A stretch of DNA of 64,000 bases from a virus. Location of the stretch: the IMG/VR virus record IMGVR_UViG_3300024346_000009; one strand, given 5' to 3'. The notes under the pieces were generated by a model that was not told the origin of the DNA, ran no database searches, and saw only the letters and a program-made list of their open reading frames with translations. Positions 7,141 to 23,295 of this stretch are shown piece by piece (the stretch's first letter is position 1; each line of letters opens with the position of its first letter). A program made the translations under genes and the position numbers.

Positions 7141-8195
7141 GTAGAGTTATTATGAGTGAGCCTCACGGCATTACACCTGATTTAAGTAATTATAAATCTG
7201 CGCTATCACGTGCTTTCAATTTCTATAATCAAGACAACGGAAAAAAAGAAGCTCGTCTGTTTTTACGGGCTTATATAAAGAGTGTCGGGCAAGATTTAAA
7301 AGCGGTAGATAGCGTACCTGATAACAAAATTAGCACAACCTACGGCTGGGTAGCACGGATACTTTTAAACGGTAATGTACTTCAAGAACAGCACGTTCAA
7401 GGACTAAAGAATTATATCAGCACCTTAACGATTGATAAAGTAGTTAAAGTTGAAGTCGAAAAAGTTACTCGGTTAACTATCCAAGATTACATGCAAGAAA
7501 AGATTGCTGAAACCCTTGGAGAGTTAGAAGGAGCTATTGATGATTTCATTACTTCAGGTACTGAGTTTGATATGCTTTCGTATCTTAAAGCTTCCTCTAC
7601 CCCGAAGCCTTACTGTAGTCATATTGATACATGGACCCGTAAGAAAGCCGCAGAGTTTATCGAGGCATATCAGTCTGATGATAAGGAACTAAAAGAGGCG
7701 TATGGGTATCTAGGAAAGAGGAAACTTGCCCAGTTAATTAAAATGCTTAATAGTTTTGTTACCGATGTAGAGCGGTATACAGAGTTTAAAAAAGCTAACC
7801 GTAAACCTAGAGCTACAAAGGTAAAGCCTGCAGGTGTTCAGGTTGCAAAGATTAAATACAAGATAGAAGATACTGATCTTGGTCTTAAATCAGTAAGACC
7901 TTCCGATATAGTTGGTGCTTCCCAGGTATGGGTATACAATTGTAAGTATAAAAGGTTAGCGGTTTATAGAACTGATTCCTCTTTAGGAATCCAGGTCAAG
8001 GGCACTACATTACAGAACTATGATCCGGAGACGAGTGAACAAAAGTCTATACGTAGACCTGAGGCTTTTCTTAAGATTGTATTAAATGCAAGTAAGGTAC
8101 AACTGCGTAAGATATTGACCGAGCTAACTACGACGGGGTACGATCTTACAGGTCGTATAAATGAAGAATGTATTATATTGAGAGTACTTAAATAA
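7137..8195 (+). CDS. Conserved hypothetical phage protein
   Basis: 352-aa ORF coupled to both neighbours; C-terminal TGRINEECIILRV. Confidence 0.7.
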   Translation: MSRVIMSEPHGITPDLSNYKSALSRAFNFYNQDNGKKEARLFLRAYIKSVGQDLKAVDSVPDNKISTTYGWVARILLNGNVLQEQHVQGLKNYISTLTIDKVVKVEVEKVTRLTIQDYMQEKIAETLGELEGAIDDFITSGTEFDMLSYLKASSTPKPYCSHIDTWTRKKAAEFIEAYQSDDKELKEAYGYLGKRKLAQLIKMLNSFVTDVERYTEFKKANRKPRATKVKPAGVQVAKIKYKIEDTDLGLKSVRPSDIVGASQVWVYNCKYKRLAVYRTDSSLGIQVKGTTLQNYDPETSEQKSIRRPEAFLKIVLNASKVQLRKILTELTTTGYDLTGRINEECIILRVLK

Positions 8196-9079
8196 TGGTT
8201 GTAATAGATTATAGTCAAACGATTATATCTAATTTAATGGCGGAGATAGGTACAAGAAGTGATGTTGAAATTGATGTAAATCTTCTTCGACACATGGTTA
8301 TTAATACTATCCGAAGTCATAAGGTTAGATTCGGTGGGGAGTTTGGCGAGGTGGTAATTGCCTGTGACAGCAGAAAGTACTGGCGTAAGCAACAATTTCC
8401 TTATTACAAAGCCAATCGTAAAAAAGCGAGAGAGAGTTCTGGTCTTAATTGGCCGCAAATATTTGACTCGATTAATCTTATTAAAGAGGAGCTGAAGGCT
8501 GTCTTTCCGTACCGGGTTATTGAAGTTGAGGGTACAGAGGCAGACGATGTTATTGCTGCATTAGTGTACTGGTCTTTAGATAATGATCTTAAGGAAGGTA
8601 CGTTGTTTAGTGAACCAGCCCCGTTTTTAATTATCTCCGGTGATCACGACTTTAATCAGCTCCAAGTGCATAAACACGTCAAGCAATATTCGCCTATTAA
8701 AAAGAAATTTGTTAAGTCTGAACTCCCACCCGAGCAATGTGTTATAGAGCACATTATCAGAGGGGATAAAGGTGACGGGGTACCGAATGTACTATCTGCT
8801 GATGATAGTATTGTATCTGGCGAGAGACAGAAGCCTATCTCTACAAAGAAGCTAGAGGAATGGATGGCTGATCCTACCACCATGCCAACGGATGATGAGT
8901 TTGTTCGAAATTATCACCGTAACAAAATGCTGGTTGATCTGTCCATGATTCCTAAATCCATACAAGAACAGATTATAAATACCTTTATAAATTACCCTAT
9001 AAAAGACCGTAGTCAATTACTAGATTATTTTATAAAAAATAGAATGAAACAAATGACTGAACATACACAGGAGTTCTAA
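8195..9079 (+). CDS. rnh: RNase H / 5'-3' exonuclease (T4 rnh)
   Basis: YWRK..FPYYKANR, EADDVIA, SGDHDFNQL and GDKGDGVPN (FEN/5' nuclease motifs). Confidence 0.93.
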   Translation: MVVIDYSQTIISNLMAEIGTRSDVEIDVNLLRHMVINTIRSHKVRFGGEFGEVVIACDSRKYWRKQQFPYYKANRKKARESSGLNWPQIFDSINLIKEELKAVFPYRVIEVEGTEADDVIAALVYWSLDNDLKEGTLFSEPAPFLIISGDHDFNQLQVHKHVKQYSPIKKKFVKSELPPEQCVIEHIIRGDKGDGVPNVLSADDSIVSGERQKPISTKKLEEWMADPTTMPTDDEFVRNYHRNKMLVDLSMIPKSIQEQIINTFINYPIKDRSQLLDYFIKNRMKQMTEHTQEF

Positions 9080-9546
9080 TGAATTTACTTATATCTGAAA
9101 TTTTAAATAATTTTGAAGCTGCTAAGACAAAGCAGGAGAAGCTAGCCATTCTCAAGCAAAATGATACCCCGGTACTCCGTACTATTATGAGGTTAAATTT
9201 TGATCCTAAACTAAAGATGGATCTACCCGAAGGGGAACCACCTTATAAAAAGGATCTAGATAAGCCTATTGGGTACCATGAGACTAATCTTATTCAAGAA
9301 TACCGAAGATTTTACATCTGGCTTACCCCTCAAACAAACTTACCTAAGTTTAAGAAAGAAACGCTATTTGTCAGTATGCTTGAAGGCCTTCACTGGTCGG
9401 AGGCAGAGGTGTTAGTTTTAGCAAAAGACGGTAAACTAAGTACTAAGTTTAAGAGTCTTAAGGAAGACATGGTTAGGGAAGTATACTTAAATTGTTTATC
9501 TGAAAAAGAGAAAGTTACTAAGGTAACGACAGACCCTTTGGTATAA
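9079..9546 (+). CDS. Conserved T4-like hypothetical protein (DUF6433-like); probable -1 frameshift extension to 9674
   Basis: LPEGEPPYK...ETLFVSMLEGLH pattern; ends C CCT TTG GTA TAA. Late promoter TATAAATA at 8974-8981. Confidence 0.75.
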   Translation: MNLLISEILNNFEAAKTKQEKLAILKQNDTPVLRTIMRLNFDPKLKMDLPEGEPPYKKDLDKPIGYHETNLIQEYRRFYIWLTPQTNLPKFKKETLFVSMLEGLHWSEAEVLVLAKDGKLSTKFKSLKEDMVREVYLNCLSEKEKVTKVTTDPLV

Positions 9547-9670
9547 AGTCTCTCTGGCATAGGTTCTTTCGACGAGCAGATCCCGTAACCCCCTGGTCTG
9601 TAAGTACTGATATTCCGTCACCAGAGAGATCGTTCGACGTAAGGCTGACAACGTTACGTAACCGTAAACC

Positions 9671-9699
9671 TTGATTTACGACTGAAAGTATACTATAAT
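9671..9699 (+). promoter_or_regulatory. Sigma70-type promoter
   Basis: TTGATT-17 nt-TATAAT. The ATG at 9705 lies about at the expected +1, so the mRNA may be leaderless. Confidence 0.75.
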
Positions 9700-9704
9700 A
9701 TATT

Positions 9705-10058
9705 ATGATCTATTCTAATACTAAGTCAAAAGTTAAACCTAAGACTATGCCTAAAGCCGAGCGCGAGGCGTATGCTAAGTGGTGTGCTCAATACGATATT
9801 AAACCTGAGGGTAAGGTTAAGAAAAAAGTAGTAGTTTATAATACTGAATTACCTGGTACTGTCTATAAGCCGTTTATTCGTGAGACGGTTCGGTATCCTA
9901 GTTTAGATACCGGTCATAAGGGTGCTGTTAATACTGGTAAGACTACTATGTGGTATACGGGCGATAAGATGCTTGGTGTAGCTACGATGCATAAGTCTAA
10001 CTTAGTTCCTATTTTTAGTGATGATAACGCGGTCGAAGTATCGCAAATGAGGAGATAA
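9705..10058 (+). CDS. Conserved hypothetical phage protein
   Basis: Basic 117-aa ORF with a YTG..MLGVATMHKSNLVP motif. Confidence 0.7.
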   Translation: MIYSNTKSKVKPKTMPKAEREAYAKWCAQYDIKPEGKVKKKVVVYNTELPGTVYKPFIRETVRYPSLDTGHKGAVNTGKTTMWYTGDKMLGVATMHKSNLVPIFSDDNAVEVSQMRR

Positions 10059-10059
10059 A

Positions 10060-10440
10060 ATGAGTACATTAATATATAATGCAATCCGTACCCCTGATGG
10101 TACTGTACTAGAGTCTAGACATAGACATGATTATGTTGTATATGAAGATAAAAATGGTAGAGAGTATATGGTGGATGGCGGCCATGATTATGTTAGACGC
10201 AACGTGCACGACGATGCTCCTTATGAAGAGATAAGTGTCTATACAACTGATGGTCACGATAAAGTACGTGAAGTACTTAAATGGGGTACATATGGTATCA
10301 ACGGTGATCAGCCCTTAACCTACATTGCACTTAAAGACATGAATACCGGGCATATTCAGGCCTGCCTAGATACCCAATCTCGTATGCATCCGACATACAG
10401 ACAAGCTTTTGAAGAAGAATTGAAACTAAGGAGTATATAA
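10060..10440 (+). CDS. Hypothetical protein
   Basis: ESRHRHDY...MVDGGHDYVRR motif; GGAG SD. Confidence 0.7.
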   Translation: MSTLIYNAIRTPDGTVLESRHRHDYVVYEDKNGREYMVDGGHDYVRRNVHDDAPYEEISVYTTDGHDKVREVLKWGTYGINGDQPLTYIALKDMNTGHIQACLDTQSRMHPTYRQAFEEELKLRSI

Positions 10441-10715
10441 TGAGTTTGCCTTCCGATCCCACCGCCCGTAAAGCTATTAAGAAATGTATGGATGAGTTAT
10501 CTGCATCCATGGCACGGATTGATGGTGAACGAGATTTTATCAAGGAAGCTATTGGTAACATATGTGAAGAATATGAAATGAGTAAAAAGACTCTTCGTAA
10601 ACTAGCTAAAGTATATCATAAGCAAAACTTCTCAAAAGAGGTTGCCGAACATGAGGAGTTCGAGACCATGTATGAACAGTTGACCGGGGAAACTAGTCTG
10701 GGTAATATTACATAA
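10440..10715 (+). CDS. dsbA: dsDNA-binding protein (T4 DsbA-like)
   Basis: 91-aa helical protein, KKTLRKLAKVYHKQNF...EFETMYE; lies downstream of rnh as in T4. Confidence 0.8.
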   Translation: MSLPSDPTARKAIKKCMDELSASMARIDGERDFIKEAIGNICEEYEMSKKTLRKLAKVYHKQNFSKEVAEHEEFETMYEQLTGETSLGNIT

Positions 10716-10716
10716 A

Positions 10717-10905
10717 ATGCATACAGTTTATAATCTAGAGATGCAGGTACGAGATAAAATGAACCGTCTTAAAAAGACCTCTCACGTTGGCGTATATAAT
10801 TCTATTGAAGATCTAGAAGTAGCAAAAGGTAAGATGCTGGAGATTAATCCAGATAATACATTTGACGTTCATTCTATTGATCATCTTTTTGAACCTACAG
10901 AGTAA
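10717..10905 (+). CDS. Hypothetical protein
   Basis: 62-aa ORF packed between genes. Confidence 0.6.
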   Translation: MHTVYNLEMQVRDKMNRLKKTSHVGVYNSIEDLEVAKGKMLEINPDNTFDVHSIDHLFEPTE

Positions 10906-10913
10906 TATAAATA
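10906..10913 (+). promoter_or_regulatory. T4-type late promoter
   Basis: TATAAATA directly upstream of the ATG at 10919. Confidence 0.7.
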
Positions 10914-10918
10914 AACAT

Positions 10919-11164
10919 ATGCCGACATATATTTTTCGTAATAAGAATACAGATGAAGTCTATGACAAAATGATGTCATGGGACAATCGTGAAGTATATC
11001 TCCAAGAGAATCCTAACCTAGAGGTCCTCATGGGAGCTCCGGCTATGGGGGACTCTGTCCGTTTAGGTATTAAAAAGCCAGACGATGGGTTTAAGGAAGT
11101 ACTGTCAAAGATTCATGCTGCTAATTACAGAAGTAACTTATCGGATAAACTATCTAGAAAATGA
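10919..11164 (+). CDS. FmdB-like small protein
   Basis: MPTYIFRNKNT...GIKKPDDGFKEVLSKI; start moved to the ATG at 10919. Confidence 0.65.
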   Translation: MPTYIFRNKNTDEVYDKMMSWDNREVYLQENPNLEVLMGAPAMGDSVRLGIKKPDDGFKEVLSKIHAANYRSNLSDKLSRK

Positions 11165-11190
11165 TTCAAGTGATTACTTCATTCAACCAT

Positions 11191-11220
11191 AAGGGCTATA
11201 CTTATCTATAGCTCTTTTTC
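11191..11220 (+). terminator. Intrinsic terminator-like hairpin upstream of phoH
   Basis: AAGGGCTATA-CTTATC-TATAGCTCTT followed by TTT. Confidence 0.55.
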
Positions 11221-11234
11221 ATTTAAGGTTTTAT

Positions 11235-12002
11235 ATGTCCACAAAAAGAGCAGCGAAACTGGCAGTCGTACATGAAGAAGGCTACCCACAAAAACAAACA
11301 GCACCACGCCCCGTTACAAATACTTTAAGATTAAAAACTGAACACCTTAAATTCTTCGATCCACTTACCGAAAATCAAAAAATATTTTACGACGCGTATG
11401 CCCGCGGTGATTACTTTGTAGCACTACATGGTGTTGCTGGAACAGGAAAAACATTTATTGCTTGTTATAAGGCATTAGAGGAAGTATTAGATAAGAACAA
11501 CCCCTTCAATAAAATTATTATCGTTAGGTCAGCTGTCCAGTCGCGAGAGATGGGTCATTTACCTGGTGATGTAGATGAGAAGCTAGAAATATATCAACAG
11601 CCGTATCGCCAAATATGCCATACCTTATTTGATCGTAAAGATGCTTACGATAGATTGGTTGAACAAGGTCATGTAGAGTTTATTTCAACATCGTTTATTC
11701 GCGGTATGTCATTTGATGATGCTATTATCATTGTTGACGAAATGCAAAATATGAACTTTGAAGAAATAGATACCGTCATGACACGGGTTGGTTACAGATC
11801 AAAGATCATCTGGTGTGGTGATTACAGACAAACTGATCTTCGCAAGTCAGGTGACAAAACAGGTATTTTAAAATTCTTTGATATTGCTTTACACATGGGT
11901 GCATTTACACGGGTTGAGTTTACGGCTGATGACATTGTAAGAAGCTCTTTAGTAAAAGATTATATTATTGCTAAGCTTAGATACGAAGATCTTACCCCTT
12001 AA
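11235..12002 (+). CDS. phoH: PhoH-family ATPase
   Basis: Walker A GVAGTGKT, GHLPG, RGMSF, DEMQN, GDYRQTD, DIVRS. Confidence 0.95.
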   Translation: MSTKRAAKLAVVHEEGYPQKQTAPRPVTNTLRLKTEHLKFFDPLTENQKIFYDAYARGDYFVALHGVAGTGKTFIACYKALEEVLDKNNPFNKIIIVRSAVQSREMGHLPGDVDEKLEIYQQPYRQICHTLFDRKDAYDRLVEQGHVEFISTSFIRGMSFDDAIIIVDEMQNMNFEEIDTVMTRVGYRSKIIWCGDYRQTDLRKSGDKTGILKFFDIALHMGAFTRVEFTADDIVRSSLVKDYIIAKLRYEDLTP

Positions 12003-12022
12003 ACTATTTTGAAAGAACTATT

Positions 12023-13069
12023 ATGAGATTAGAACCATACACAATTTTCGTCTCTCTATGCTCATACAGAGACCCCCTCCTGTACAGTACAGTCATGTCA
12101 TTGATACAGGGGCGGTGTGGGAGGAATAGAATAGTTATTGGAATATTTGAGCAGATTGTTGCTGAAGACTCACTGCCGGTAAAGTATCCTGATATTAAAG
12201 AAGCTATTGACGCGTACGAAAATAACACACTTAGGTCAGTGAATGGCGGGCCAAGGCCAGCGGAAATTATATATAAACGAATTGATCCCCAATACTCTAA
12301 TGGGGCTGGGTGGGCTAGAGCTATTAACCAATATCAACTATCTCCTGATGAATATGATTTACTTTATCAAATTGACTCCCATATGCTTTTTGATAAAGAT
12401 TGGGATAGGACCCTTATAAGCGATTATGAGGATGCAATTATTAAGTACAATACTAAAAAAGTAATTATAACTGCGCCGTGTAAGTGGTACGATGTTCTTG
12501 AGGATAACAGTATTTCTAAAGGCCCAGAATTATATTATGAAGGTACTAAGGATATAAGTTACAGAGCGACAGGTCACATGTTGTATTATATGACAAATGC
12601 ATTTGTCAATGGGTATATTATATCTGCTCATGGACAAATTGATCCTATAGGACCAGGGATACGGGATGCATTCCACATATGCGCAGGTAATACTGTCTTT
12701 CCGTCACAGTGGGTACGAGATGTAGGTAACAATATTGAAATTCACTTTGAAGGGGAAGAACAGTGGCTTAGTCTGGCTTCTTTTGCAGCAGGGTATCAAC
12801 TATGTCATCCAAAAGAAATTGTAACATACCATTATATGAAATCGGGTAATTATATTACAAAAGTATGGTTTGAACAGGTTGTAAGTAATTTCAGAAGGTC
12901 ACATGATGTATTAAGGTCAATCGCTGAATTATCAAAGTTGATAACAACGTTACCTGAAGATGTTTTAAAGAGATTTTATGAATATTCAGGAATTGATTAT
13001 ATAAATAAAACTGTAGATCAGCGGGCTCTACATCCCCATCCCCCTTTTACCCTACCGCCAAAAGAATAA
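12023..13069 (+). CDS. Glycosyltransferase, GT60/Gnt1-like (polypeptide/hydroxyproline GlcNAc transferase family)
   Basis: IFVSLCSYRDP, GAGWAR, QIDSHMLFDKDWD (DxH) and FEGEE motifs. Confidence 0.75.
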   Translation: MRLEPYTIFVSLCSYRDPLLYSTVMSLIQGRCGRNRIVIGIFEQIVAEDSLPVKYPDIKEAIDAYENNTLRSVNGGPRPAEIIYKRIDPQYSNGAGWARAINQYQLSPDEYDLLYQIDSHMLFDKDWDRTLISDYEDAIIKYNTKKVIITAPCKWYDVLEDNSISKGPELYYEGTKDISYRATGHMLYYMTNAFVNGYIISAHGQIDPIGPGIRDAFHICAGNTVFPSQWVRDVGNNIEIHFEGEEQWLSLASFAAGYQLCHPKEIVTYHYMKSGNYITKVWFEQVVSNFRRSHDVLRSIAELSKLITTLPEDVLKRFYEYSGIDYINKTVDQRALHPHPPFTLPPKE

Positions 13070-13073
13070 CCAA

Positions 13074-13691
13074 ATGAATATTACATTAGAACAGTTACAA
13101 AGCCTTATACCAAACGCTGTTGGAGGACCGGAGGCATGGTATGAGCCACTATGTGAAGCATTACCGCAATACGAGATAAACACCGTTGAAAGAGTTGCAG
13201 CGTTTATAGCTCAGTGCTCACATGAATCTGGTGGTTTTTCTGTTTTAGAAGAAAACCTAAACTATAGAGCAGCCACACTCTCTAAGTTATGGCCACAAAG
13301 ATTTCCACCAGGTGTAGCCGAGCAGTATGCGGGTAAGCCTGAAATGATTGCTAATAAGACTTACGGTGGTAGAATGGGTAATGGGTCGGAAGAAACTGGT
13401 GAAGGGTACAAGTACAGGGGCCGTGGTATTCTTCAATTAACAGGTAAGGATAACTATAAAACCTGTTCTCAAGCACTCTTTCAAGACGGGTCTCTTTTAG
13501 AAGACCCTGATCTTCTTTTAGACCCGTATTATGCAATTCATTCTGCTTGCTGGTTTTGGAATAAAAATAAATTAAACCAATTTGCAGATTCTGGTGATCT
13601 AACAACAATGACTAAAAAAATTAACGGCGGAACAATTGGGCTTGAGGATCGTATTAAGCACTATGATCATGCTGTAGAGATCTTAACATAA
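13074..13691 (+). CDS. GH19 chitinase-like endolysin
   Basis: FIAQCSHESGGF..LEENLNY, YRGRGILQLTGKDNY, SACWFW, KINGG. Late promoter TATAAATA at 13000-13007. Confidence 0.92.
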   Translation: MNITLEQLQSLIPNAVGGPEAWYEPLCEALPQYEINTVERVAAFIAQCSHESGGFSVLEENLNYRAATLSKLWPQRFPPGVAEQYAGKPEMIANKTYGGRMGNGSEETGEGYKYRGRGILQLTGKDNYKTCSQALFQDGSLLEDPDLLLDPYYAIHSACWFWNKNKLNQFADSGDLTTMTKKINGGTIGLEDRIKHYDHAVEILT

Positions 13692-13700
13692 GGAATATTA

Positions 13701-14429
13701 ATGAGTTATAACTTTACCTTAGCCCAGCTATCGCTTCTAATAAGAGAGCCTGGGGAGTCCGAGAACTGGTACGAGCCTCTTTGTGCGGCAATGGATCAGT
13801 ACGAAATTAACAGTGCAATAAGAATATCTTCTTTTCTTACTCATTGTGCCTACATGACAAAACGATTTACAGAAATGGAAGAAGACTTAAGCTACAGCGC
13901 TGAAGATTTAGTAAAGACATGGCCTAATATATTTACAGTAGAAAATGCTGTATCATACGCCGGTAATCCCGAAAAGATTGCTAATAAAGCGTACAGCAAT
14001 ATACTGGGTAATGGTTCAGAAGAATCAGGTGATGGTTATAAGTTCAGAGGACGCGGCCTGTTAATGATTCGCGGTAGAGGTGATTACACTACATGTTCAC
14101 AGACTCTCTTTCGGGATTCAAGATTGGTAGATACACCAGATTTAGTAAAAGAAAAACCTACCTGTATTGATTCAGCTGGTTGGTTCTGGTCTACAAATAA
14201 TTATAACGTAAGGTACGATGCTGATACGAAGTATGTGCAATTTGGTATGCCAGGTAATACTACTTTTGTTGCTAATACTATACTAGATAATACAGTAAAT
14301 ATTCCGAATATTAATATTATTAATACCGGCGGTAAGTCAGAGGCAGCATTGACCAGTAGAGAATCACAATCCGCAATCAGTAACTATTCATCGCTCTTAC
14401 CCTTCATACTGGAAATAACTAAAGTATAA
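13701..14429 (+). CDS. GH19 paralogue, catalytic motif degenerate
   Basis: Colinear with the upstream gene (FRGRGLL, SAGWFW) but HES is replaced by YMT; divergent C-terminus. Confidence 0.8.
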   Translation: MSYNFTLAQLSLLIREPGESENWYEPLCAAMDQYEINSAIRISSFLTHCAYMTKRFTEMEEDLSYSAEDLVKTWPNIFTVENAVSYAGNPEKIANKAYSNILGNGSEESGDGYKFRGRGLLMIRGRGDYTTCSQTLFRDSRLVDTPDLVKEKPTCIDSAGWFWSTNNYNVRYDADTKYVQFGMPGNTTFVANTILDNTVNIPNINIINTGGKSEAALTSRESQSAISNYSSLLPFILEITKV

Positions 14430-14433
14430 TATT

Positions 14434-15102
14434 ATGTTTAATCATGTAAAGCTTGACAAAGTTGTACCTAGGTTGCAACAAATTAATGAGAATGGGGTAA
14501 GACACTATATGACCCCAGAAGGAAATAAATATCCTTCCATTACCACTGTCCTATCTGAGTATAGCCGTAAGGGTATATATGAATGGCGACAAAGGGTAGG
14601 AGACGAGGCTGCAAACAGAATATCGGGTAAAGCCTCTACCAGAGGTACCAAACTACATAAGGCATGCGAAGATTATATCAATAACTTAGAGCCTGAGTTT
14701 CGTACCCCCTTTGAGCGAGATTTATTTAAACGATTTACCCCTACCTTACATCGTATCAACAATGTGTATGCACAAGAGATACGTATGTACTCCGACCACC
14801 TACGTATTGCAGGTACGGTAGATTGTATAGGTGAGTTTGATGGGAAGATGTCGGTAATCGATTTTAAAACATCTGCCAAAGAAAAAGATAAAGAATACAT
14901 TGAAAACTACTTCATGCAGTGTTCAGCGTACGCCATTATGTTTGAGGAGCAGTATGGAATTCCTGTCTCACAAACCGTCGTTGCAATTGCTGTAGAGGAT
15001 GGGGAGTCACAAGTCTTTATAGAGAAGAGAGATACTCATGTAAAGCGGTTGATTCACTTTCGGGATTTATATGAACGTAAGAGTAGCCTAATAACTCATT
15101 AG
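14434..15102 (+). CDS. PD-(D/E)xK exonuclease
   Basis: YPSITTVL, RGTKLH, AGTVDC, IDFKTS, YFMQCSAYA. Confidence 0.88.
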   Translation: MFNHVKLDKVVPRLQQINENGVRHYMTPEGNKYPSITTVLSEYSRKGIYEWRQRVGDEAANRISGKASTRGTKLHKACEDYINNLEPEFRTPFERDLFKRFTPTLHRINNVYAQEIRMYSDHLRIAGTVDCIGEFDGKMSVIDFKTSAKEKDKEYIENYFMQCSAYAIMFEEQYGIPVSQTVVAIAVEDGESQVFIEKRDTHVKRLIHFRDLYERKSSLITH

Positions 15103-15185
15103 CATATATAATGAATACGTAGTAAGTAGATTATTGTTTTAAAGGGCAGAGAGAAGAATAGTTAAGATCACCATAAGGAGATCAA

Positions 15186-15293
15186 ATGTCTGAATCATCA
15201 GAAGAATATGTATACCAAATAGTATGTGGTATACTGATAGTGTTCTCTATACTATGTATAGGTATTGCATCGGTCTTCTTTTGGCGAGCGTGA
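15186..15293 (+). CDS. 35-aa single-TM membrane peptide (not in the ORF track)
   Basis: AAGGAG SD, then MSESSEEYVYQIVCGILIVFSILCIGIASVFFWRA*. Confidence 0.6.
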   Translation: MSESSEEYVYQIVCGILIVFSILCIGIASVFFWRA

Positions 15294-15299
15294 CATAGA

Positions 15300-15606
15300 T
15301 TATTGCTGTATGAAGTAAAGAGAAAGACGTCTTGGACGCGGGCGCAAATCCCGCCAGGTCCACCAAAGTATACTATAAATGGGGTCGTAGCGGTTGTAAG
15401 AACTTTAGTACATACCTTAGATAATAGTATACTTTATTGGGCCTGAAATAGATTCGACAGGGCAGCAAGTAACAGAATGGACAGCACATCAGCAACGATG
15501 TAAAAAGAAGAAAACAAAGTAAACGCAAACGACTCAAAGTTCGCATTAGCAGCCTAAACACTGCTTAGGGTTTCGGTAGGTTTCCTCGTAACAGAATAAC
15601 CTACCA
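15300..15606 (+). ncRNA. ssrA: Circularly permuted (two-piece) tmRNA
   Basis: The 3' tRNA-like half comes first: T-stem GCGGG/CCCGC (15338-15354), CAGGTCC-A-CCA ending at 15365. Then an intervening segment (15366-15438), then the 5' half GGGCCTG-AAATAGATTCGAC from 15439. The 7-bp acceptor stem has the Ala identity pair G3.U70. Tag frame 15525-15557 = ANDSKFALAA*. 3' hairpin GGTAGGTT/AACCTACC. Outer ends are approximate. Confidence 0.93.
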
Positions 15607-15640
15607 TTTTCTAACACTCATACACACAAAGGAGATTATT

Positions 15641-15913
15641 ATGAGTAACATGACCCCTTTCGAGATTCGTCTCGAACTTCTCAAAATGGCCAAAGATATG
15701 CTTGGTGACGACTACTACGGTAAGCGCGAAGTAATATCTAACGACTGGGCCACAAAGGTAGAGACGGCTAAACACGCCGGACAAACGCCTCCAGAGCATC
15801 CGGGCTACCCAGCCTACCCCTCAGAAATAGATATCATTGCAAAGGCTCATGTCTTGAATGGTTTTGTTTCCAACATCCCTCAAGATAACATTAAGACTAT
15901 TAGTAAGAAGTAA
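15641..15913 (+). CDS. Conserved hypothetical phage protein
   Basis: AAGGAG SD; TPFEIRLELLKMA...IIAKAHVLNGFVS. Confidence 0.75.
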   Translation: MSNMTPFEIRLELLKMAKDMLGDDYYGKREVISNDWATKVETAKHAGQTPPEHPGYPAYPSEIDIIAKAHVLNGFVSNIPQDNIKTISKK

Positions 15914-15966
15914 TCTGAAGGTAGGGGCTCTTGTTAACTCAGGAGCCTCCTTAATAAGGAAAACCA

Positions 15967-16509
15967 ATGGTAAAGACTTTTAATCTATTTTTAAAAATAG
16001 GTCTTGTGGTATTAATGGTATTTTTAGTTACCAAATTTACCACCAATAGAATCGACTATTATAATACTAAGCAATATAATGGTACCCCAATCACAATGGA
16101 GGACAGAGAAAAGCAGTTGACCTGCTTAGCAAAGAATATCTATCACGAGGCGGCTACAGAGCCGTTTGAGGGTAAGGTTGCAGTAGCTCAGGTTACATTA
16201 AACAGGGCAGCCTCTGGCAAGTTCCCACCCAATATATGCGATGTAGTTTATCAAAAGAATGTTTTTTATGGTAAAGTCATCTGCCAGTTTTCATGGTATT
16301 GTGAAAGTGGTCCTAAAGTTAAATCTAATGCTCACTACAAGGAGTCAATGGAAGTGGCTAAGAAAGTACTTTTAGAAAACTTTAGATTACCCTCAATGCA
16401 TAAAGCAATGTACTATCATGCTGATTATGTAAACCCTAATTGGAATCTTCCAAAGATCAGTCAAATCGGTCGTCATATATTTTACGGTGAGAAAAATGGA
16501 AAAATTTAA
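15967..16509 (+). CDS. SleB-like cell wall hydrolase (Hydrolase_2)
   Basis: N-terminal TM; CLAKNIYHEA, AVAQVTLNR, CQFSW, YYHADYVNP, IGRHIFY. Confidence 0.9.
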   Translation: MVKTFNLFLKIGLVVLMVFLVTKFTTNRIDYYNTKQYNGTPITMEDREKQLTCLAKNIYHEAATEPFEGKVAVAQVTLNRAASGKFPPNICDVVYQKNVFYGKVICQFSWYCESGPKVKSNAHYKESMEVAKKVLLENFRLPSMHKAMYYHADYVNPNWNLPKISQIGRHIFYGEKNGKI

Positions 16510-16804
16510 CCAATTAAAAGATACAGTATTCTCCTACTTTGAAGGCTTTACAAAGGCGACGGCTGATACGTTTGCATGGATCAGCATAGTGGTTTTAATT
16601 GCTTCAACCATTCCAGGCTTTATTGCTGTAATGGCCGGTGCTACAGATAAGATGCCACCATTAGATATTACGTTACTGGTGTGGGCAAGTCTGTTGCTTT
16701 ATTTTGTAAGATCAGCTATACTCAAAGATATGCTGATGGTGGTCACGATAGGGTTCGGGTTCGCGGTTCAAGCAATATTACTAGGATTGATTTACTTTAC
16801 ATGA
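16496..16804 (+). CDS. Small multi-TM membrane protein
   Basis: Three hydrophobic helices; coupled to both neighbours. Confidence 0.65.
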   Translation: MEKFNQLKDTVFSYFEGFTKATADTFAWISIVVLIASTIPGFIAVMAGATDKMPPLDITLLVWASLLLYFVRSAILKDMLMVVTIGFGFAVQAILLGLIYFT

Positions 16805-17064
16805 ATGATGACGCTGAAAAGTTGACGGACGTATTGGTTATTACCAAGCGGTTTAGATCACCAAATGAGTTTAGTATCTATATTGATGAGATGGTTGCCA
16901 GTAACGGGATCAAGTACATGGATGCCGTTATAGGTTACTGTAATGAGAAGGATATTGAGATAGATAGTATCGGTCCTTTAATTAATCAGAAACTTAGAGA
17001 AAAGATTCAGATGGAGGCCGAGCAAGAGAATATGATCAAACCTAGAGGCCATCTACCTATATGA
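16801..17064 (+). CDS. Late transcription coactivator (T4 gp33-like)
   Basis: FSIYIDEMV...YMDAVIGYC...LINQKLREKIQMEA; synteny 33-59-32. Start moved to the ATG at 16801. Confidence 0.85.
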   Translation: MNDDAEKLTDVLVITKRFRSPNEFSIYIDEMVASNGIKYMDAVIGYCNEKDIEIDSIGPLINQKLREKIQMEAEQENMIKPRGHLPI

Positions 17065-17672
17065 TTGCTATGGAACCGTTTTCCGTCTATAAGTATTACC
17101 TCGCCCTACGACTTCACTTCACCACCGAAGGGTACGATGTGATTGCGCAGCAAGGGAGAGTGAGAGCGTCAAAGCAAGCGTTCTTAAAGCGTAAGGATTT
17201 ATTATCAATACGTAAAGTGGCGGAGACGTACTCAGATAAAGATATAGTTGACTTCCTTGTTGCCAATTTTATATCGGGTGATAGGTGGGGTGGTATATTT
17301 GATGTGGAATCAAGAGAGAGGTATATTAGTTGGAAGAAGCGTATAGAATCTATAGCGTATAATTTTGAAAAAGAGTTAAACAAAGCTGTCCTCTACGCAG
17401 AAAAAAATGGGATTACATTCTTTGATTTATTCGTGACTGGGGATAACCAGCATCCATATATAATCAAGATGTTTCTAAGAAATGAGATATCTATTGAAAC
17501 TCTTGTTATCCTAAATAAATTAAATAGCTTCATTGAGAAGTTTGACGTGGATTTGAAAGATGATTTAGTATGGCCAGATGTTTCAAGAGTAATTAGAAAA
17601 TATTCACCATTCCTTAATATAAAAAAAGATAAGTACTATGCCATATACCACAGATCAATTGGATCAAACTAA
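17061..17672 (+). CDS. Helicase loader (T4 gp59-like)
   Basis: YKYYLALRLHFT..YD, FLVANF, ISIETLVIL, KYSPFL; synteny. Confidence 0.88.
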   Translation: MIAMEPFSVYKYYLALRLHFTTEGYDVIAQQGRVRASKQAFLKRKDLLSIRKVAETYSDKDIVDFLVANFISGDRWGGIFDVESRERYISWKKRIESIAYNFEKELNKAVLYAEKNGITFFDLFVTGDNQHPYIIKMFLRNEISIETLVILNKLNSFIEKFDVDLKDDLVWPDVSRVIRKYSPFLNIKKDKYYAIYHRSIGSN

Positions 17673-17853
17673 TTTACGTATTATTGAGATTGAAAAGAAT
17701 TTATGTATTATGCAAGAAAATATAACTGCCGTTTCTGATCATATTAGGGAAACCCAAAGATATTTAATTAAATTGGCTCACCACCAATCAGAAATTGCCA
17801 AGAGGCTTTCCTCATGGCCTTTTATAGCCGTAACGAAACAGAGTGAGGAATAA
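17638..17853 (+). CDS. Hypothetical coiled-coil protein
   Basis: 71-aa ORF with heptad pattern. Confidence 0.55.
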   Translation: MPYTTDQLDQTNLRIIEIEKNLCIMQENITAVSDHIRETQRYLIKLAHHQSEIAKRLSSWPFIAVTKQSEE

Positions 17854-17874
17854 ATGCTAGGGACTTTATTGTAA

Positions 17875-18078
17875 ATGAAATACGATAACCGGGATAGGGA
17901 TAGAGAGTGGGATAAGAAACCACGTAAGGTACTTAAAGGGACCGATAAAGTTGCCAAGTATCGAAGAAGCATATATAATATGTTAACAGATGAAGATTCC
18001 GATCTTGATCTGGAAACTGAGGAAGGTGATGTTGGTCATAATTATCATGGAAATAGTAGTTATAAAAAACAACGCTAA
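17875..18078 (+). CDS. Hypothetical charged protein
   Basis: 67-aa basic/acidic ORF upstream of gp32. Confidence 0.55.
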   Translation: MKYDNRDRDREWDKKPRKVLKGTDKVAKYRRSIYNMLTDEDSDLDLETEEGDVGHNYHGNSSYKKQR

Positions 18079-18113
18079 TACATCGCATACAACGTTAATA
18101 CAAGGAGAGTAAT

Positions 18114-19004
18114 ATGGCAATGGATTTTAATACAATGAAAACCGCTCGTGGTGGTTTCGATAGCCTGATGAAGGAAGTCGAGAAGATTGCAACACCACAA
18201 AATCAAGACAACGCAAAAGATGATCGCTTCTGGCAACCAGAGGTAGATAAGGCCGGTAACGGCTATGCAGTCATCCGCTTTCTTCCGCCTCCTAAGGGTG
18301 AAGATCTTCCATGGGTTCGTGTTTGGAATCATGGATTTCAAGGTCCTACAGGAAAGTGGTACATCGAGAACTCACTCACAACATTAAGTAAACCTGATCC
18401 TGTATCAGAACTTAATACCGAGTTGTGGAATACAGGTCTTGAGTCTAACAAGGATATTGTACGCAAACAAAAGCGTCGATTGACTTATGTTTCAAACATC
18501 TACGTCGTTAAAGACCCTGCACATCCTGAGAACGAAGGTAAAGTATTTCTTTACAAGTTCGGTAAGAAGATCTTTGATAAGATTAAAGATGTGATGCAGC
18601 CTCAGTACGAAGATGAAACCCCTATCAACCCCTTCGACTTCTGGAAGGGCGCTAACTTCAAGTTGAAGATTCGTAATCTTGAAGGATATCGTAACTACGA
18701 TAAGTCTGAGTTTGATAGTCTTTCTGTTCTATCTGAAGATGATGACGCACTTCAAACTACCTGGGGTAAGCAACATTCTTTAGTTGAGTTTCTTGACCCT
18801 AAGAACTTTAAGTCGTATGATGAACTTAAATCTAAACTTCAAATGGTCTTGACTGCAACAGGTTCAGCACCTAGAGCAGAAGAGTTATCATTGGAAAGTA
18901 TGCCCCGACCTGTACCAGCAAAAGCAGCTTCGAAGAAGGAAGTTGATTTTGACGATGCAGAGGGTTCCCTATCGTACTTCGCCAAGCTGGCGAATGATGA
19001 TTAA
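18114..19004 (+). CDS. ssDNA-binding protein (T4 gp32-like)
   Basis: DDRFW..DKAGNGYAVIRFLP, WYIENSLTT, YKFGKKIFDKI, NYDKSEF, acidic tail. Confidence 0.96.
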   Translation: MAMDFNTMKTARGGFDSLMKEVEKIATPQNQDNAKDDRFWQPEVDKAGNGYAVIRFLPPPKGEDLPWVRVWNHGFQGPTGKWYIENSLTTLSKPDPVSELNTELWNTGLESNKDIVRKQKRRLTYVSNIYVVKDPAHPENEGKVFLYKFGKKIFDKIKDVMQPQYEDETPINPFDFWKGANFKLKIRNLEGYRNYDKSEFDSLSVLSEDDDALQTTWGKQHSLVEFLDPKNFKSYDELKSKLQMVLTATGSAPRAEELSLESMPRPVPAKAASKKEVDFDDAEGSLSYFAKLANDD

Positions 19005-19080
19005 TTAGGTAGTCTTAGCCTCCTCCAGGGCACTCGTTACCTTAGTAACCCAGGCCCTGGTCCGGTGACGAGCTAGTTAA
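19001..19080 (+). other. Structured RNA element (pseudoknot-like) between gp32 and the small secreted protein
   Basis: CCAGGGC (19025-31) pairs with GCCCTGG (19054-60), interleaved with CTCGTTACC (19033-41) pairing with GGTGACGAG (19064-72). GC-rich island in AT-rich DNA. Confidence 0.55.
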
Positions 19081-19119
19081 ATTTTGTGTTTAACTTTTAT
19101 TTAAATTTTGGAGTTTTTT

Positions 19120-19332
19120 ATGAAGACAATTATCGCAATTATTACTACCCTGTTCGCCTTGAGTTCTTTTGCTGCTGAGCCAGCTAAGAAAGAAGAAGCA
19201 AAGCCTGCTGCTAAAGCTGCCGCCGCTCCTGCTGCGCCAGCCGCTAAAGCTGCTCCTGCCGCGGCTCCTGCTGCACCAGCAGCACCAGCTGCCGCTAAGA
19301 AAGACGAAAAGAAGCCTGAAGCAAAAAAGTAA
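19120..19332 (+). CDS. Small secreted Ala/Pro/Lys-rich protein; probable -1 frameshift extension to 19436
   Basis: GGAG SD; signal peptide MKTIIAIITTLFALSSFA; ends GCA AAA AAG TAA. Confidence 0.8.
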   Translation: MKTIIAIITTLFALSSFAAEPAKKEEAKPAAKAAAAPAAPAAKAAPAAAPAAPAAPAAAKKDEKKPEAKK

Positions 19333-19434
19333 AGCGGCCTTGCAAAGCTGGGCAAACTGCGGCTGACGGCTGTAGAGTTGTCAAGAAGGCCGTGAAGAAA
19401 CCAGCTAAGAAGTCTACGAAAGTAGATAAGAAGT

Positions 19435-19465
19435 AAAAAAAGGGACTTTCGGGTCCCTTTTTCTT
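19435..19465. terminator. Bidirectional intrinsic terminator between convergent operons
   Basis: A-tract, AGGGAC-TTTCGG-GTCCCT, T-tract. Confidence 0.88.
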
Positions 19466-21987
19466 TAGTATACCGCTATCTTATTTGAGTACCTATCGAG
19501 CGCAGATCCTGTATATTCCGGTCGTGGTGTAGGCTTAGATGGCATAAACTTTGTAGTATTATTACTACTAACGTTATTAGATACAACGGTATTATTAGCA
19601 CCACCCTTAGATGCATCTCTTTCCATATCGGCGTTTTCGGTAGAAGTTTTAGCAACATCTTTTCCGGTTAGAATAGGGGAACCTTTACCAACATTACCCT
19701 CAACATCTAGGGTTGATGGGGCAAGCGCTTGAGCTCTTGCTTCTTTTATCTCTGTTAATTTCTTTCTAGCACCTTCAACATCACCTTTTTTATTAAGTTC
19801 TTGAAGTTGATTATATTCCTGTTTAGTTACTTCAGTGTCATATTCTGCACTATCACCACCCGTACCGCTCATCTCACTAGATACTTTATAGGTATCTTTA
19901 CCAAATAGACCACCAGAAATTCTCTGGCCAAGCATGCTTCCGTAATTAGCTTCGGTCTTGTTGATTTGTTTACCTTCAACTTTACCTTCTACCACTTTCT
20001 CATCAGATGATGTACCTAAAAAGCTGCCTGATTCTTTACCCTTTGCAGTAAACAAACCACCAAGGAATGTACTACCGAGTACAGACTTTTGTGCTGTGAC
20101 CCCTTCTTTATTACTAGCTGTTGAGGTAGTTGCCTCTAACCCAGGTCCTCGAGATATTGATTTATCGCTAGTAGCCACTTCACCTGTACTACTTACCATT
20201 TGATCAGCCATGGCAACACCCTTTGCCTGATCGTTTAAACCTATACCGCTGTTATAAACACCCTTAACCTTATCACCAATACCACCGAAGAAGTCTCCAG
20301 CTGCATTAATAGCTTTGCCGCCGTATTCCCCAACAACCTTACCTGCTTTAGATCCAGCAAATGCTCCTAGGGCTCCGCCTGCTATACCACCGATAGCTGT
20401 ACCAACACCTGGTACTATTGAACCAATTGTAGCACCGAGGGAGGCACCAGCAATAGCTCCGGCTGCCATACCAGTACCTTCACCTATTGCGCCACTCTTT
20501 TCAACAGTAGCTGTATTACCTATTTCTTTTCTTGCAGCTGCAGCTTCTTCTGGCTTCATTTCACCAGAGTCAAACTTAGCCTGAACCTCTTCCATTTTAG
20601 CTTGCTTACTATCTTCGGCTGCTGTATATCCTTCGTATGCAGTATATGCACCTAGGCCAACTGCTGCTGCTGCACCCAGTACCTTACCTGTATTACTAGT
20701 TGCAAACTTAGCCAGCTTACCGCCCATACTTGCTACCTTACCAGCACCTCCCTTTTTGCCCACCAAATCCATTGCACCTGAAGCTAAGTCACCTACAAGA
20801 GAACCTTTCTCATCCTCTTCTTCTTTCTTCGCCGATGGAGCACCCTTTTGATCGGTAATTTCAGCTGGTGTTTTAGGTGCTAAAGCATCTCGTATTTCTT
20901 TAAGCGTTGTTAGTTGCTCTTTTGTAGTCTCAAGCATCTGCTTAGATAACTCAAGATCACTCTTAGCAGCATCAGCAAGGGCTTCACCTGATGATGTAAC
21001 ATTATCACCTTCTGGGTTAGCAGCCTCTGGTGATTTCTCTGCGGGACTTGATACCTTACCTTCCCGTTCTTTTTTCTTATCCTCTGGTGGCTCCTCGTAC
21101 CCAATTAAATGATCTCTTATCCTGCCAGGGGTCGCTTTTACCTCGTCCTTAAACGTTGCAAAGAAGCCTCTATTATCCGTCTGTTCTTCATCATTTTTTT
21201 CTTTAGGTTCTACCCCACCTGTAATCCCTGCTACACTACTTCTTTCTCTACGTGCTCTTTTAATAGATGTATTTCTACCTTCAGAAGGTCCCTGATCATC
21301 ACCTAAATTACCACCCAAAGCTTCAGCTGTTGCTCCACCAGGTCTAGTTGATGTAACGCTGGTTATTAAATTTAATTTATTATCTTTTCTAGCCCGTTCA
21401 CCCTGCCCAGATAAGGTATCTCTGGCAGTTTCAAAATCTAAAAAGCCACCATCTTTAGATGTCTTGCCTGAGACCTTGCTCTCAATATCTCTACCACTGG
21501 TATTTCTATATTGAGCCGCCTCCTTGTCGTACTCAACACTACCTTCAGTTAATTTTCTTACTAATGAAATCTCTTTTAATTGTTCATCTTGTAACTTATT
21601 AGTGTTTATCCCTATAGCACCCATGGTAGCAACCAGGTGACCACTATCAATAAACTTACCTACATCTGACCCAACATTTTGTACTGCAGCTTTTACGCCT
21701 GTAATAACTTCCTTAAGCCCCTCTAATACCGTAGTTATCCTAGATAATGTATCATTTGCAGTGTCTAGTTGATCTTGAACCTCTATTACATCATCGCTGA
21801 CATCATGTAACCCATCTCTTAAAGAATCTCTTACAGATGAAGTTTCATCTTTTAAGTCACTTAGACTTTCATTGGTTTTATCAATACCTTTGGTAGTTTC
21901 TTTTTGTGCTAAAATCCCACCACCAGTTTGCTCCTTGAGTTTATCAAGGAACGCTTTAAAGCTAGGATCTGCTGATGGAGATTGCAT
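19465..21987 (-). CDS. Tape-measure-like / baseplate hub protein (gp29 position)
   Basis: 840 aa; N-terminal coiled coil and a Gly/Ala-zipper TM region (GAIAGASLGATIGSIVPGVGTAIGG); downstream of gp26/gp51. Confidence 0.6.
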   Translation of the reverse strand: MQSPSADPSFKAFLDKLKEQTGGGILAQKETTKGIDKTNESLSDLKDETSSVRDSLRDGLHDVSDDVIEVQDQLDTANDTLSRITTVLEGLKEVITGVKAAVQNVGSDVGKFIDSGHLVATMGAIGINTNKLQDEQLKEISLVRKLTEGSVEYDKEAAQYRNTSGRDIESKVSGKTSKDGGFLDFETARDTLSGQGERARKDNKLNLITSVTSTRPGGATAEALGGNLGDDQGPSEGRNTSIKRARRERSSVAGITGGVEPKEKNDEEQTDNRGFFATFKDEVKATPGRIRDHLIGYEEPPEDKKKEREGKVSSPAEKSPEAANPEGDNVTSSGEALADAAKSDLELSKQMLETTKEQLTTLKEIRDALAPKTPAEITDQKGAPSAKKEEEDEKGSLVGDLASGAMDLVGKKGGAGKVASMGGKLAKFATSNTGKVLGAAAAVGLGAYTAYEGYTAAEDSKQAKMEEVQAKFDSGEMKPEEAAAARKEIGNTATVEKSGAIGEGTGMAAGAIAGASLGATIGSIVPGVGTAIGGIAGGALGAFAGSKAGKVVGEYGGKAINAAGDFFGGIGDKVKGVYNSGIGLNDQAKGVAMADQMVSSTGEVATSDKSISRGPGLEATTSTASNKEGVTAQKSVLGSTFLGGLFTAKGKESGSFLGTSSDEKVVEGKVEGKQINKTEANYGSMLGQRISGGLFGKDTYKVSSEMSGTGGDSAEYDTEVTKQEYNQLQELNKKGDVEGARKKLTEIKEARAQALAPSTLDVEGNVGKGSPILTGKDVAKTSTENADMERDASKGGANNTVVSNNVSSNNTTKFMPSKPTPRPEYTGSALDRYSNKIAVY

Positions 21988-22406
21988 TATTGATCCAGGT
22001 TAGGTTTAATTATTGGTCTTCTAATCACAGGCATAGGAGTATCATTGCCAGTATCTGGCGATGAATTAAACGTGGTAGATACTGTCTGGCTTACAGGCAT
22101 CATTGGTAGAGATATGCCGCCGTTGTTTGCTCCGGCTAATTTTTCCTGTGTTCTACCAAATGCAGCAAGCCCCAACACTGCACCCATTGCAATGTGGTAC
22201 AGGCCTGCACCCTGTAAAGTTAGTGGTTGCCATTGTGTAATCTGGCCAACTTTTGCAACAGTTTGTAATAGACTCCATAGTATTGGAAAAATAACAAAGT
22301 CAAAAGTACATGTGGCCATATATAGCCAACCCATCATCGGACGCCACTTACTGTTCATCCAATCTTCTTTTTTTAATTCGCTTGCGCTTTTAACTTCGTC
22401 TGCCAT
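21987..22406 (-). CDS. Holin-like membrane protein (GTA 3TM holin family-like)
   Basis: KWRPMMGWLYM..C.FDF, WQPLTLQGAGLYHIAMGAVLGLAAFGRTQEK. Confidence 0.65.
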   Translation of the reverse strand: MADEVKSASELKKEDWMNSKWRPMMGWLYMATCTFDFVIFPILWSLLQTVAKVGQITQWQPLTLQGAGLYHIAMGAVLGLAAFGRTQEKLAGANNGGISLPMMPVSQTVSTTFNSSPDTGNDTPMPVIRRPIIKPNLDQ

Positions 22407-22606
22407 TATAGATTCCTTGCATTTTGTTTAAGCATTTTAAGCTTTTCATTTTCCTTTTTAATATAGTCAATTAGTAATGAAACGTAAATCTCCCTCTCCC
22501 ATGGCATCATATTTTCTAACTCTGTAAGGCTGTACTTATGATGCTGCATCAGCGAGAAATTTAAAGTAAAGTAGTTAGCTAATGAATCATGTGAGAGGGC
22601 TATACG
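22406..22606 (-). CDS. gp51-like baseplate hub assembly segment (not in the ORF track); -1 frame of gp26
   Basis: RIALSHDSLANYFTLNFSLMQHHKYSLTELENMMPWEREIYVSLLIDYIKKENEKLKMLKQNARNL*. The internal ATG at 22549 has no SD. The stop overlaps the holin ATG. Confidence 0.85.
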   Translation of the reverse strand, partial: RIALSHDSLANYFTLNFSLMQHHKYSLTELENMMPWEREIYVSLLIDYIKKENEKLKMLKQNARNL

Positions 22607-23295
22607 AAAAAATTCTGTAATCCCTCAAGCCGCGATACATTGTGCTTATTACATTTCGGGCAATCACATTCAATTATCTGTACGATTTTTGGTGATGTAA
22701 CAAAAAACTTTTCCAATTTATCAAACTGTTCTTTAGTTAAAGAGTAAATAAATTCTTCTAATTCTGCCCTAGTTTGATCAGCCGCCTCCCAATACTCGTC
22801 TTTATTGTAAATAGCTTTTACACAATTAATAATTAAATCGATTACCGATTGGTTATCTTTTGATGCAAATACTCCCACAACTTCGTCAATATTGGGGTAC
22901 TTCATTTCAATACCAATATCATCTGTAATATTAATCTTATTACTGTGATCAGGTTTAACTTCAATCTTGAGATCCTCAATACTAAAACTGGTATCAATTT
23001 TAGTACCGCATTCACAATTAATAACTACATCTACCGATTCACCTATAGACTTTGCCCGTAGGTTCATAAAGATATATTCAATATCGAAGTGAGGTAAATC
23101 TTTTACCTTGAGTTCCTTAAAGGTACACACATCGACAAGCTCCCGTATAATTCGTGAAACTTCTTCATTTTCTGCCTCCGACATTGTTAACAGCACCTTA
23201 TGCTCTTTAACAAGAAAGGGTCTAAATTTAATTTTATTACCTGTAGAAGGTAAATTCAATTCATACGTTGGTGTTTCTAATTTTGGTAAAGCCAT
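22600..23295 (-). CDS. Baseplate hub assembly chaperone (gp26-like)
   Basis: MALPKLETPTYEL, FRPFLVKEHK, FDIEYIFMNLRAKSIGE, Cys pairs, ends LQNFFV. Confidence 0.88.
   Translation of the reverse strand: MALPKLETPTYELNLPSTGNKIKFRPFLVKEHKVLLTMSEAENEEVSRIIRELVDVCTFKELKVKDLPHFDIEYIFMNLRAKSIGESVDVVINCECGTKIDTSFSIEDLKIEVKPDHSNKINITDDIGIEMKYPNIDEVVGVFASKDNQSVIDLIINCVKAIYNKDEYWEAADQTRAELEEFIYSLTKEQFDKLEKFFVTSPKIVQIIECDCPKCNKHNVSRLEGLQNFFV

Follow-up and report, generated by a model that had tools for sequence, protein, structure and literature searches.

Ribosomes that slip back by one base near the end of a gene can make two proteins from one message, a known kind of mechanism exemplified by lambda G/GT, T7 10A/10B and dnaX. 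For phages, -1 frameshifting to a longer isoform is usually reckoned as a single case per genome, that of the tail chaperone. Long-tailed phages conserve the -1 frameshift of their tail assembly chaperone genes (Xu, Hendrix and Duda 2004, as summarised in a 2016 recoding review, PMC5009743). The T4 proteins gp26 and gp51 are both listed as hub assembly chaperones, and gp51 shares with lambda G/GT an absence from the virion (PMC3004832). Here we analyse three slippery sequences that lie close ahead of stop codons in virus record IMGVR_UViG_3300024346_000009, in a stretch of 64,000 nucleotides whose full length is referred to as the window. They occur at the 3′ ends of genes for a DUF6433 protein (site 1), a small and putatively secreted protein (site 2) and a gp26-like baseplate hub assembly protein (site 3).

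Judged from the sequences and their relatives, each of these three unrelated genes probably carries an independently arisen cassette for programmed -1 ribosomal frameshifting at its 3′ end, giving a short and an extended protein. That the shift is ribosomal, how efficient it is and what the extensions do are inferred here. Most ribosomes would terminate at the zero-frame stop and release the short protein, while a fraction would slip back one base on the heptamer, the tRNAs in the P and A sites re-pairing in a tandem slip that is probably aided by a pause at the nearby stop and by the RNA stem just downstream. Slipped ribosomes would then append a C-terminal extension of 35-66 residues, producing a minor longer isoform.

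Three slippery sites ahead of stop codons

The architecture of the sites, their conservation, the coding signature of the -1 frame and the conservation of the stems are matters of direct observation. A first-pass annotation of this DNA had reported three heptamers with a common layout, and all of them (C CCT TTG, A AAA AAG and T TTT TTC) were confirmed at their positions, in the X XXY YYZ phase of the upstream open reading frame (ORF) and 0-1 codon ahead of its stop. At all three the 5′ arm of a stem begins 4-7 nucleotides after the heptamer, and the open -1 frame, 35-66 codons long, ends at the next element: a promoter-like site at site 1, a terminator at site 2 and the next ATG at site 3. 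The zero-frame genes are unrelated to one another. The proposal that stop-proximal slips of this sort generate C-terminally extended isoforms is very probably correct, each cassette being kept in relatives.

The annotation had suggested a genome-wide scan against codon-shuffled controls. Ours covered the 76 ORFs of the window and found a modest enrichment, with four in-frame heptamers 0-1 codon before a stop as against a mean of 0.93 expected from 5000 codon shuffles (P=0.012 for at least four). An open -1 frame of at least 30 codons follows 32 of the 76 window genes because of ATGA gene overlaps, and such a frame was dropped as a criterion. As the window statistics are modest and open frames common, the case therefore rests on comparison with relatives. 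There, the synonymous bases on which the heptamers depend are kept, and both the zero frame and the -1 frame are under purifying selection as measured by the ratio of nonsynonymous to synonymous differences (pN/pS). The covariation analysis that had also been proposed found the stems kept in relatives, with compensatory changes at sites 1 and 3.

The fourth heptamer of the scan, at 45286-45298 on the plus strand (caA AAA AAG GTT TAA), ends the gene of a 78-residue virion structural protein (phrog_473). Its -1 tail is just 11 codons long and overlaps the next start.

Site 3 comprises the following features:

22600-23295, minus strand: zero-frame gene, gp26-like baseplate hub assembly protein of 231 residues (PF12322, E 4e-60; phrog_150)
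22606-22612, minus strand: slippery heptamer T TTT TTC, in the context aaT TTT TTC GTA TAG
22406-22605, minus strand: -1-frame extension of 66 codons, the 'gp51' of databases (phrog_634), with stop TAA at 22408-22406
22599-22588 (5′ arm) and 22503-22492 (3′ arm), minus strand: long-range stem, 11 of 12 base pairs (bp) in the window, enclosing about 84 nucleotides

The stop TAG (22602-22600) lies one codon past the heptamer. All 70 distinct relatives, with 41-82% identity in gp26, keep T TTT TTY (TTTTTTC in 68, TTTTTTT in 2), and in 66 of the 70 the stop follows after one codon. For this pattern, each of the sequences must have T at both of two synonymous positions; in T4 gp26, where the slip arrangement is missing, the Phe-Phe pair is spelled TTC TTT. 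From 22624 onward the -1 frame is open, being closed a few codons further upstream, and the stop of the extension overlaps the next ATG (TAATG). When the 72-residue -1 peptide was used as a tblastn query, it matched 566 phage records from its first residue, and in each of these the -1 relation is the same, with the gp51-like peptide overlapping the gp26 end. The stem has 85% of its cells paired in 38 sequences, compared with 41-64% in slid registers; six pairs are changed on both sides, and its covariation exceeded that of all 500 shuffles.

The T4 proteins show what the two products would correspond to. A Pfam search with the window gp26 matched PF12322 (T4_baseplate) alone, at 203.7 bits, and T4 gp51 belongs to the same family at 177.5 bits (E 3.9e-52; gathering cut-off 24.5). 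The window extension aligns to the C-terminal tail of T4 gp51 (residues 195-244), and T4 gp26 ends where the zero-frame product of the window ends; therefore one gene together with a -1 slip would equal the gp26/gp51 pair of T4. The products would be gp26 itself and its fusion to gp51, two forms of a hub-assembly chaperone, one short and one long, in the manner of lambda G/GT.

Site 1 lies in a gene directly downstream of RNase H:

9079-9546, plus strand: zero-frame gene, DUF6433 protein of 155 residues (Pfam PF20025, E 1.5e-31)
9534-9540, plus strand: slippery heptamer C CCT TTG, in the context gaC CCT TTG GTA TAA
9541-9674, plus strand: -1-frame extension of about 44 codons (PFGIKSLW...PERSFDVRL...RKP), with stop TGA at 9672-9674
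9545-9557 (5′ arm) and 9621-9633 (3′ arm), plus strand: long-range stem, 13 bp in the RNAalifold consensus
9671-9699, plus strand: promoter-like site TTGATT-17-TATAAT, preceding the gene at 9705-10058

The zero-frame stop TAA (9544-9546) again stands one codon past the heptamer, and the arrangement NNC CCT TTR NNN stop recurs in about ten relatives found at the DNA level (58-95% identity), among them an independent assembly that is 95% identical. The codon leading into the heptamer is always NNC, yet its amino acid varies among D, I, A, V, S and L. A C-terminus of the form P-L-x-stop is found in 111 of the 120 nearest database proteins. One subclade, whose proteins end ...KGKKKAPSA, is without CCCTTTR and has an A AAA AAG three codons upstream that opens the same extension, and different slip sites feeding one extension are typical of genuine recoding. 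In every relative with the heptamer the -1 frame is open and the peptide conserved, with in-frame indels and the motif W-x-V-S...P-E-[RK]-x-[FY]-[ND]-V-[RK]. The pN/pS of the -1 frame (0.42-0.79, as against 0.8-1.6 in the other frames) was the lowest in seven of seven comparisons. The extension is absent from the DUF6433 genes of the close relatives L030, L211 and phage Melnitz and from those of the cyanophage type.

The stem at site 1 encloses a variable loop of about 63 nucleotides and was the sole consensus helix returned by RNAalifold on eight sequences. Its cells are 90% paired, compared with 33-64% in slid registers, and three of its pairs are compensatory, with codon changes such as W to C and P to A preserving a G-C pair. 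Most relatives have a Shine-Dalgarno (SD)-like AAGGAG or GAGG 7-10 nucleotides ahead of the heptamer. The stop of the extension falls within the -35 hexamer TTGATT, and the arrangement TTGAC...TATAAT is likewise present in the relatives.

Two further relatives, L028 and L029 (IMG/VR), have an in-phase A AAA AAG about seven codons before the DUF6433 stop in addition to C CCT TTA; both open one -1 extension, making two possible tandem slip sites. An inner hairpin and pseudoknot that were considered at site 1 are not counted as supported, since the 95%-identical relative has many differences in 9575-9590 and compensates for them only in part.

The DUF6433 protein is labelled 'hypothetical' in 479 phage records, and a sequence search of the PDB gave no match. 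Its AlphaFold2 model has a predicted local distance difference test score (pLDDT) of 83, and the top Foldseek matches of this model were 5wfy, with a template modelling (TM) score of 0.70, and 6dt1, both the N-terminal DNA-binding domain of T4 DNA ligase; across the matches to these entries TM scores were 0.60-0.70, E values 2e-3 to 8e-3 (none at 1e-3) and identities 17-19%. We treat the resemblance of the predicted fold to this ligase domain as a lead. A free-standing copy of such a domain beside RNase H suggests, if the model is right, a role in Okazaki-fragment processing. Recoding would then provide this ligase-DNA-binding-domain-like protein both in its plain form and with a basic tail of about 44 residues added.

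Site 2 is formed by these features:

19120-19332, plus strand: zero-frame gene, Ala/Pro/Lys-rich protein of 70 residues with no family match
19323-19329, plus strand: slippery heptamer A AAA AAG, in the context gcA AAA AAG TAA
19330-19436, plus strand: -1-frame extension of 35 codons, basic, with two Cys (KKVKRPCKAGQTAADGCRVVKK...), stop TAA at 19434-19436
19334-19341 with 19386-19393, plus strand: outer helix of a stem-loop, from the consensus of seven sequences
19351-19355 with 19378-19382 and 19357-19363 with 19369-19375, plus strand: inner helices of the stem-loop, from the same consensus
19437-19462, plus strand: intrinsic terminator hairpin, directly after the extension stop and in the same place in relatives

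The N-terminus of the 70-residue protein resembles a signal peptide (MKTIIAIITTLFALSSFA/AEP), and its stop (TAA, 19330-19332) abuts the heptamer. Relatives were found in viral contigs by a degenerate pattern that used twelve extension residues only; this returned nine contigs with six distinct sequences besides the window, all of which have GCA AAA AAG TAA. Every one of the nine has a zero-frame protein with the putative signal peptide upstream and a terminator past the extension, and two have retained the cassette although the zero-frame protein has strongly diverged. Among five homologues without the extension, one has the heptamer. Across relatives the extension reads KKV[KI][RK]PCKAGQTAADGCRVV..., with an in-frame indel of three nucleotides, and its pN/pS is 0.03-0.19 in the -1 frame as against more than 1.2 in the others. 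The stem-loop begins 4 nucleotides past the heptamer and is interrupted, with 20 pairs; it is 95.6% paired in seven sequences, compared with 22-49% in slid registers, and the window segment folds at z = -3.6. The products would be two forms of a small, putatively secreted protein rich in Ala, Pro and Lys, the longer one ending in a basic tail of 35 residues with two Cys.

Frameshifting weighed against other explanations

Several observations speak against programmed frameshifting at these sites. The same codon shuffles give P=0.064 for at least three heptamers, a window enrichment that is modest alone. At every site the stem arms lie in coding sequence, so that the peptide explains part of their conservation. 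RNAalifold run on 38 gp26 junctions did not recover the site 3 stem unaided, this stem having been evaluated by an explicit test of the pairing proposed in the first-pass annotation, and the site 2 stem has a single compensatory pair. At site 1 the window segment folds no better than its shuffles (z = -0.99), no in-frame fused homologue was found among the best 120 proteins, and C CCU UUG is not known as a validated slip heptamer in bacteria. In KVP40, S-CRM01, phiM19 and P-SSM2, moreover, the small gp51 ORF has its own ATG that overlaps or abuts the gp26 stop, and translational coupling could yield a free small protein in these phages.

This last arrangement favours an explanation without any fusion, namely that the downstream frames are separate small genes expressed from a non-canonical start or by termination-reinitiation, and databases do annotate the site 3 extension as a gene of its own, the 'baseplate hub assembly catalyst'. 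The -1 frames of sites 1 and 2, however, contain no ATG, GTG or TTG and no conserved alternative start, and in the clade of site 3 the first ATG of the extension (22549) comes after 19 conserved codons and has no SD sequence. Separate genes would also leave the conserved synonymous positions of the slippery sequences unaccounted for, and T4 gp51 is a natural in-frame fusion of both parts. We consider separate genes quite improbable. A slip by RNA polymerase on the A6 or T6 run, by which some transcripts would gain an extra base and encode the fusion, would give the same protein as a ribosomal slip, and the conservation data do not tell these mechanisms apart. It would apply to sites 2 and 3 only, which do have homopolymer runs; at the gp26 site of Melnitz the run reaches eight T. 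Against it, six-base runs are short for productive transcriptional slippage, which needs neither the exact X XXY YYZ phase nor conserved stems 4-7 nucleotides downstream, and CCCTTTG at site 1 shares the layout and is no homopolymer. Slippage of the polymerase is for these reasons unlikely.

The first-pass annotation had itself raised the possibility of single-base assembly errors at homopolymers, to which recently frameshifted pseudogenes may be added. Sites 2 and 3 do consist of homopolymers, a source of error in some sequencing chemistries; site 1 is no such run, and independent assemblies share the sequences at all three sites, the same frame relation being found in dozens of such assemblies and in the genomes of cultured phages. 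With purifying selection acting on both frames as well, error or decay is exceedingly improbable. Programmed ribosomal frameshifting remains the reading that we favour for all three sites.

Transfer-messenger RNA and a proposed common programme

The first-pass annotation went on to propose that stop-proximal frameshifting is a general strategy of this phage, and it raised, as speculation, a link to the phage's own ribosome-rescue RNA. The RNA in question is situated among the three sites:

15252-15620, plus strand: permuted two-piece transfer-messenger RNA (tmRNA; Rfam RF04321, 111.5 bits; RF01850, 92.9 bits)

ARAGORN did not detect a tmRNA at 15252-15620. The tmRNA is a clade trait, common to phages Mosig and Melnitz and to four IMG/VR relatives.

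The notion of a general strategy stood in part. The gp26 site extends over cyanophages, pelagiphages, KVP40-like phages and phiM12-like phages; sites 1 and 2 are confined to a narrow freshwater or marine clade. As the ranges are very different and the cassettes are lost singly, they look like three independent inventions of a common phage device rather than one programme.

The link to the tmRNA did not hold. P-SSM2, KVP40 and phiM19 keep the gp26 slip site, but no tmRNA in them scores above the Rfam cut-off. A coordinated programme of recoding with ties to the tmRNA, in which for example the rescue RNA would set the isoform ratios by acting on ribosomes that pause where a stem follows the stop, could draw on the position of the tmRNA among the three sites and on the frequency of tmRNA-bearing relatives in the clade. 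According to the review by Atkins et al. 2016 (PMC5009743), tmRNA action can be triggered by a stem-loop that closely follows a stop on its 3′ side, and tmRNA effects on frameshifting have been little tested. Beside the three phages just named, however, Melnitz bears a tmRNA and is without the site 1 extension, four relatives with a tmRNA do not have the site 2 pattern, and neither sequence complementarity nor any other direct connection came to light. We regard such a programme as highly improbable. A recoding regulon, in which the three isoform ratios would respond together to the translation state of the host and possibly be modulated by the permuted tmRNA through ribosomes paused at a stop with a stem behind it, is very unlikely too, if a shade less so; were it true, it would join the hub chaperone to a DNA-binding protein with a link to replication and to an envelope protein that is secreted.

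Genomic setting, significance and known systems

By gene content the window is part of a T4-like myophage genome. Its closest cultured relatives by protein are cyanophages, Pelagibacter phage Mosig and Methylophilales phage Melnitz, with gp26 identity of about 40%, and IMG/VR relatives reach 82%. Replication genes include RNase H (8195-9079), a gp59-like helicase loader (17061-17672) and gp32, which is intact at 18114-19004 and was matched by megablast to cyanophage gp32. A block of baseplate genes flanks 22-38 kb on both sides, and at site 3 the order is gp26 with its extension, a 139-residue ORF and an 840-residue ORF with weak tape-measure matches. The 139-residue ORF (21987-22406, minus strand) has a weak match to a holin family with three transmembrane segments (PF11351, phrog_3427) and occupies the position of gp28 in T4.

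Two other arrangements were seen, both on the plus strand. A gp5-like hub/lysozyme protein is apparently divided between neighbouring ORFs, with an OB-like N-terminal part at 28257-29342 and a beta-helix with an endolysin-like domain at 29342-31675. A tandem pair of paralogous ORFs (13074-13691 and 13701-14429) matches endolysin/chitinase-like families (phrog_181), downstream of a PhoH-like gene (11235-12002) and a glycosyltransferase-like gene (12023-13069).

A literature search on gp26/gp51 or baseplate-hub frameshifting returned nothing relevant, and no paper was found on any of the three cases; the portion of the 2016 recoding review available to us (PMC5009743) mentions neither baseplate nor cyanophage. 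The inspected database records either list gp26 and 'gp51' as separate genes or give the extension no annotation. The three cassettes are new instances of the known mechanism. A single phage would have three such cases, all well conserved, and only one of them would concern virion assembly. With gp26, the T4 pair gp26 and gp51, a puzzle of long standing, would be explained as short and long forms of one chaperone, carrying the logic of lambda G/GT into T4-like phages, while the DUF6433 case would add a regulated tail to a protein modelled as ligase-DNA-binding-domain-like beside RNase H, and site 2 would place recoding in a small secreted protein. Current annotation shows a short ORF at each of these loci and treats what comes after it as 'intergenic' or as a mini-gene of its own; with the cassettes mis-annotated in this way, the longer proteins would therefore be missing from hundreds of phage records. 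The cassettes are short and suited to reporter assays.

Among known systems, T4 offers the nearest proteins. Like the window gp26, its gp26 (208 residues) and gp51 (249 residues) belong to PF12322, and the end of T4 gp26 (...GLKEFFELL) is like that of the window's zero-frame product (...GLQNFFV). In T4, however, the two forms come from separate, divergently transcribed genes without a slippery run, whereas the one gene in the window would give both. Lambda gpG/gpGT offers the nearest arrangement, as at site 3, too, a small gene for an assembly chaperone, just upstream of the tape-measure region, would give a minor extended form through a -1 slip close to its 3′ end. The differences are that the site 3 protein belongs to PF12322 (gp26/gp51) and not to a recognised tail assembly chaperone family, that the holin-like ORF separates its gene from the 840-residue tape-measure-like gene, and that G GGA AAG in lambda needs no known structure while T TTT TTC at site 3 is accompanied by a conserved long-range stem.

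Gene 10A/10B of T7 and T3 resembles the three sites in that a -1 shift a few codons before the stop leads to a C-terminally extended minor isoform. Stimulation there reportedly depends, from work by Condron et al. in 1991, on sequence far downstream, which would be comparable to the long-range stems described here; it differs in being a capsid gene with the heptamer G GUU UUC. In dnaX of Escherichia coli (tau/gamma), A AAA AAG is combined with a nearby downstream stem-loop, as at site 2 and in the subclade of site 1. As for upstream elements, SD-like motifs precede the heptamer in most relatives of site 1, whereas site 2 has no evident upstream SD. The outcome also differs: in dnaX the shifted ribosome stops almost at once and makes the shorter protein, while at the three sites of the window the shift would carry the ribosome past the stop and make the longer one.

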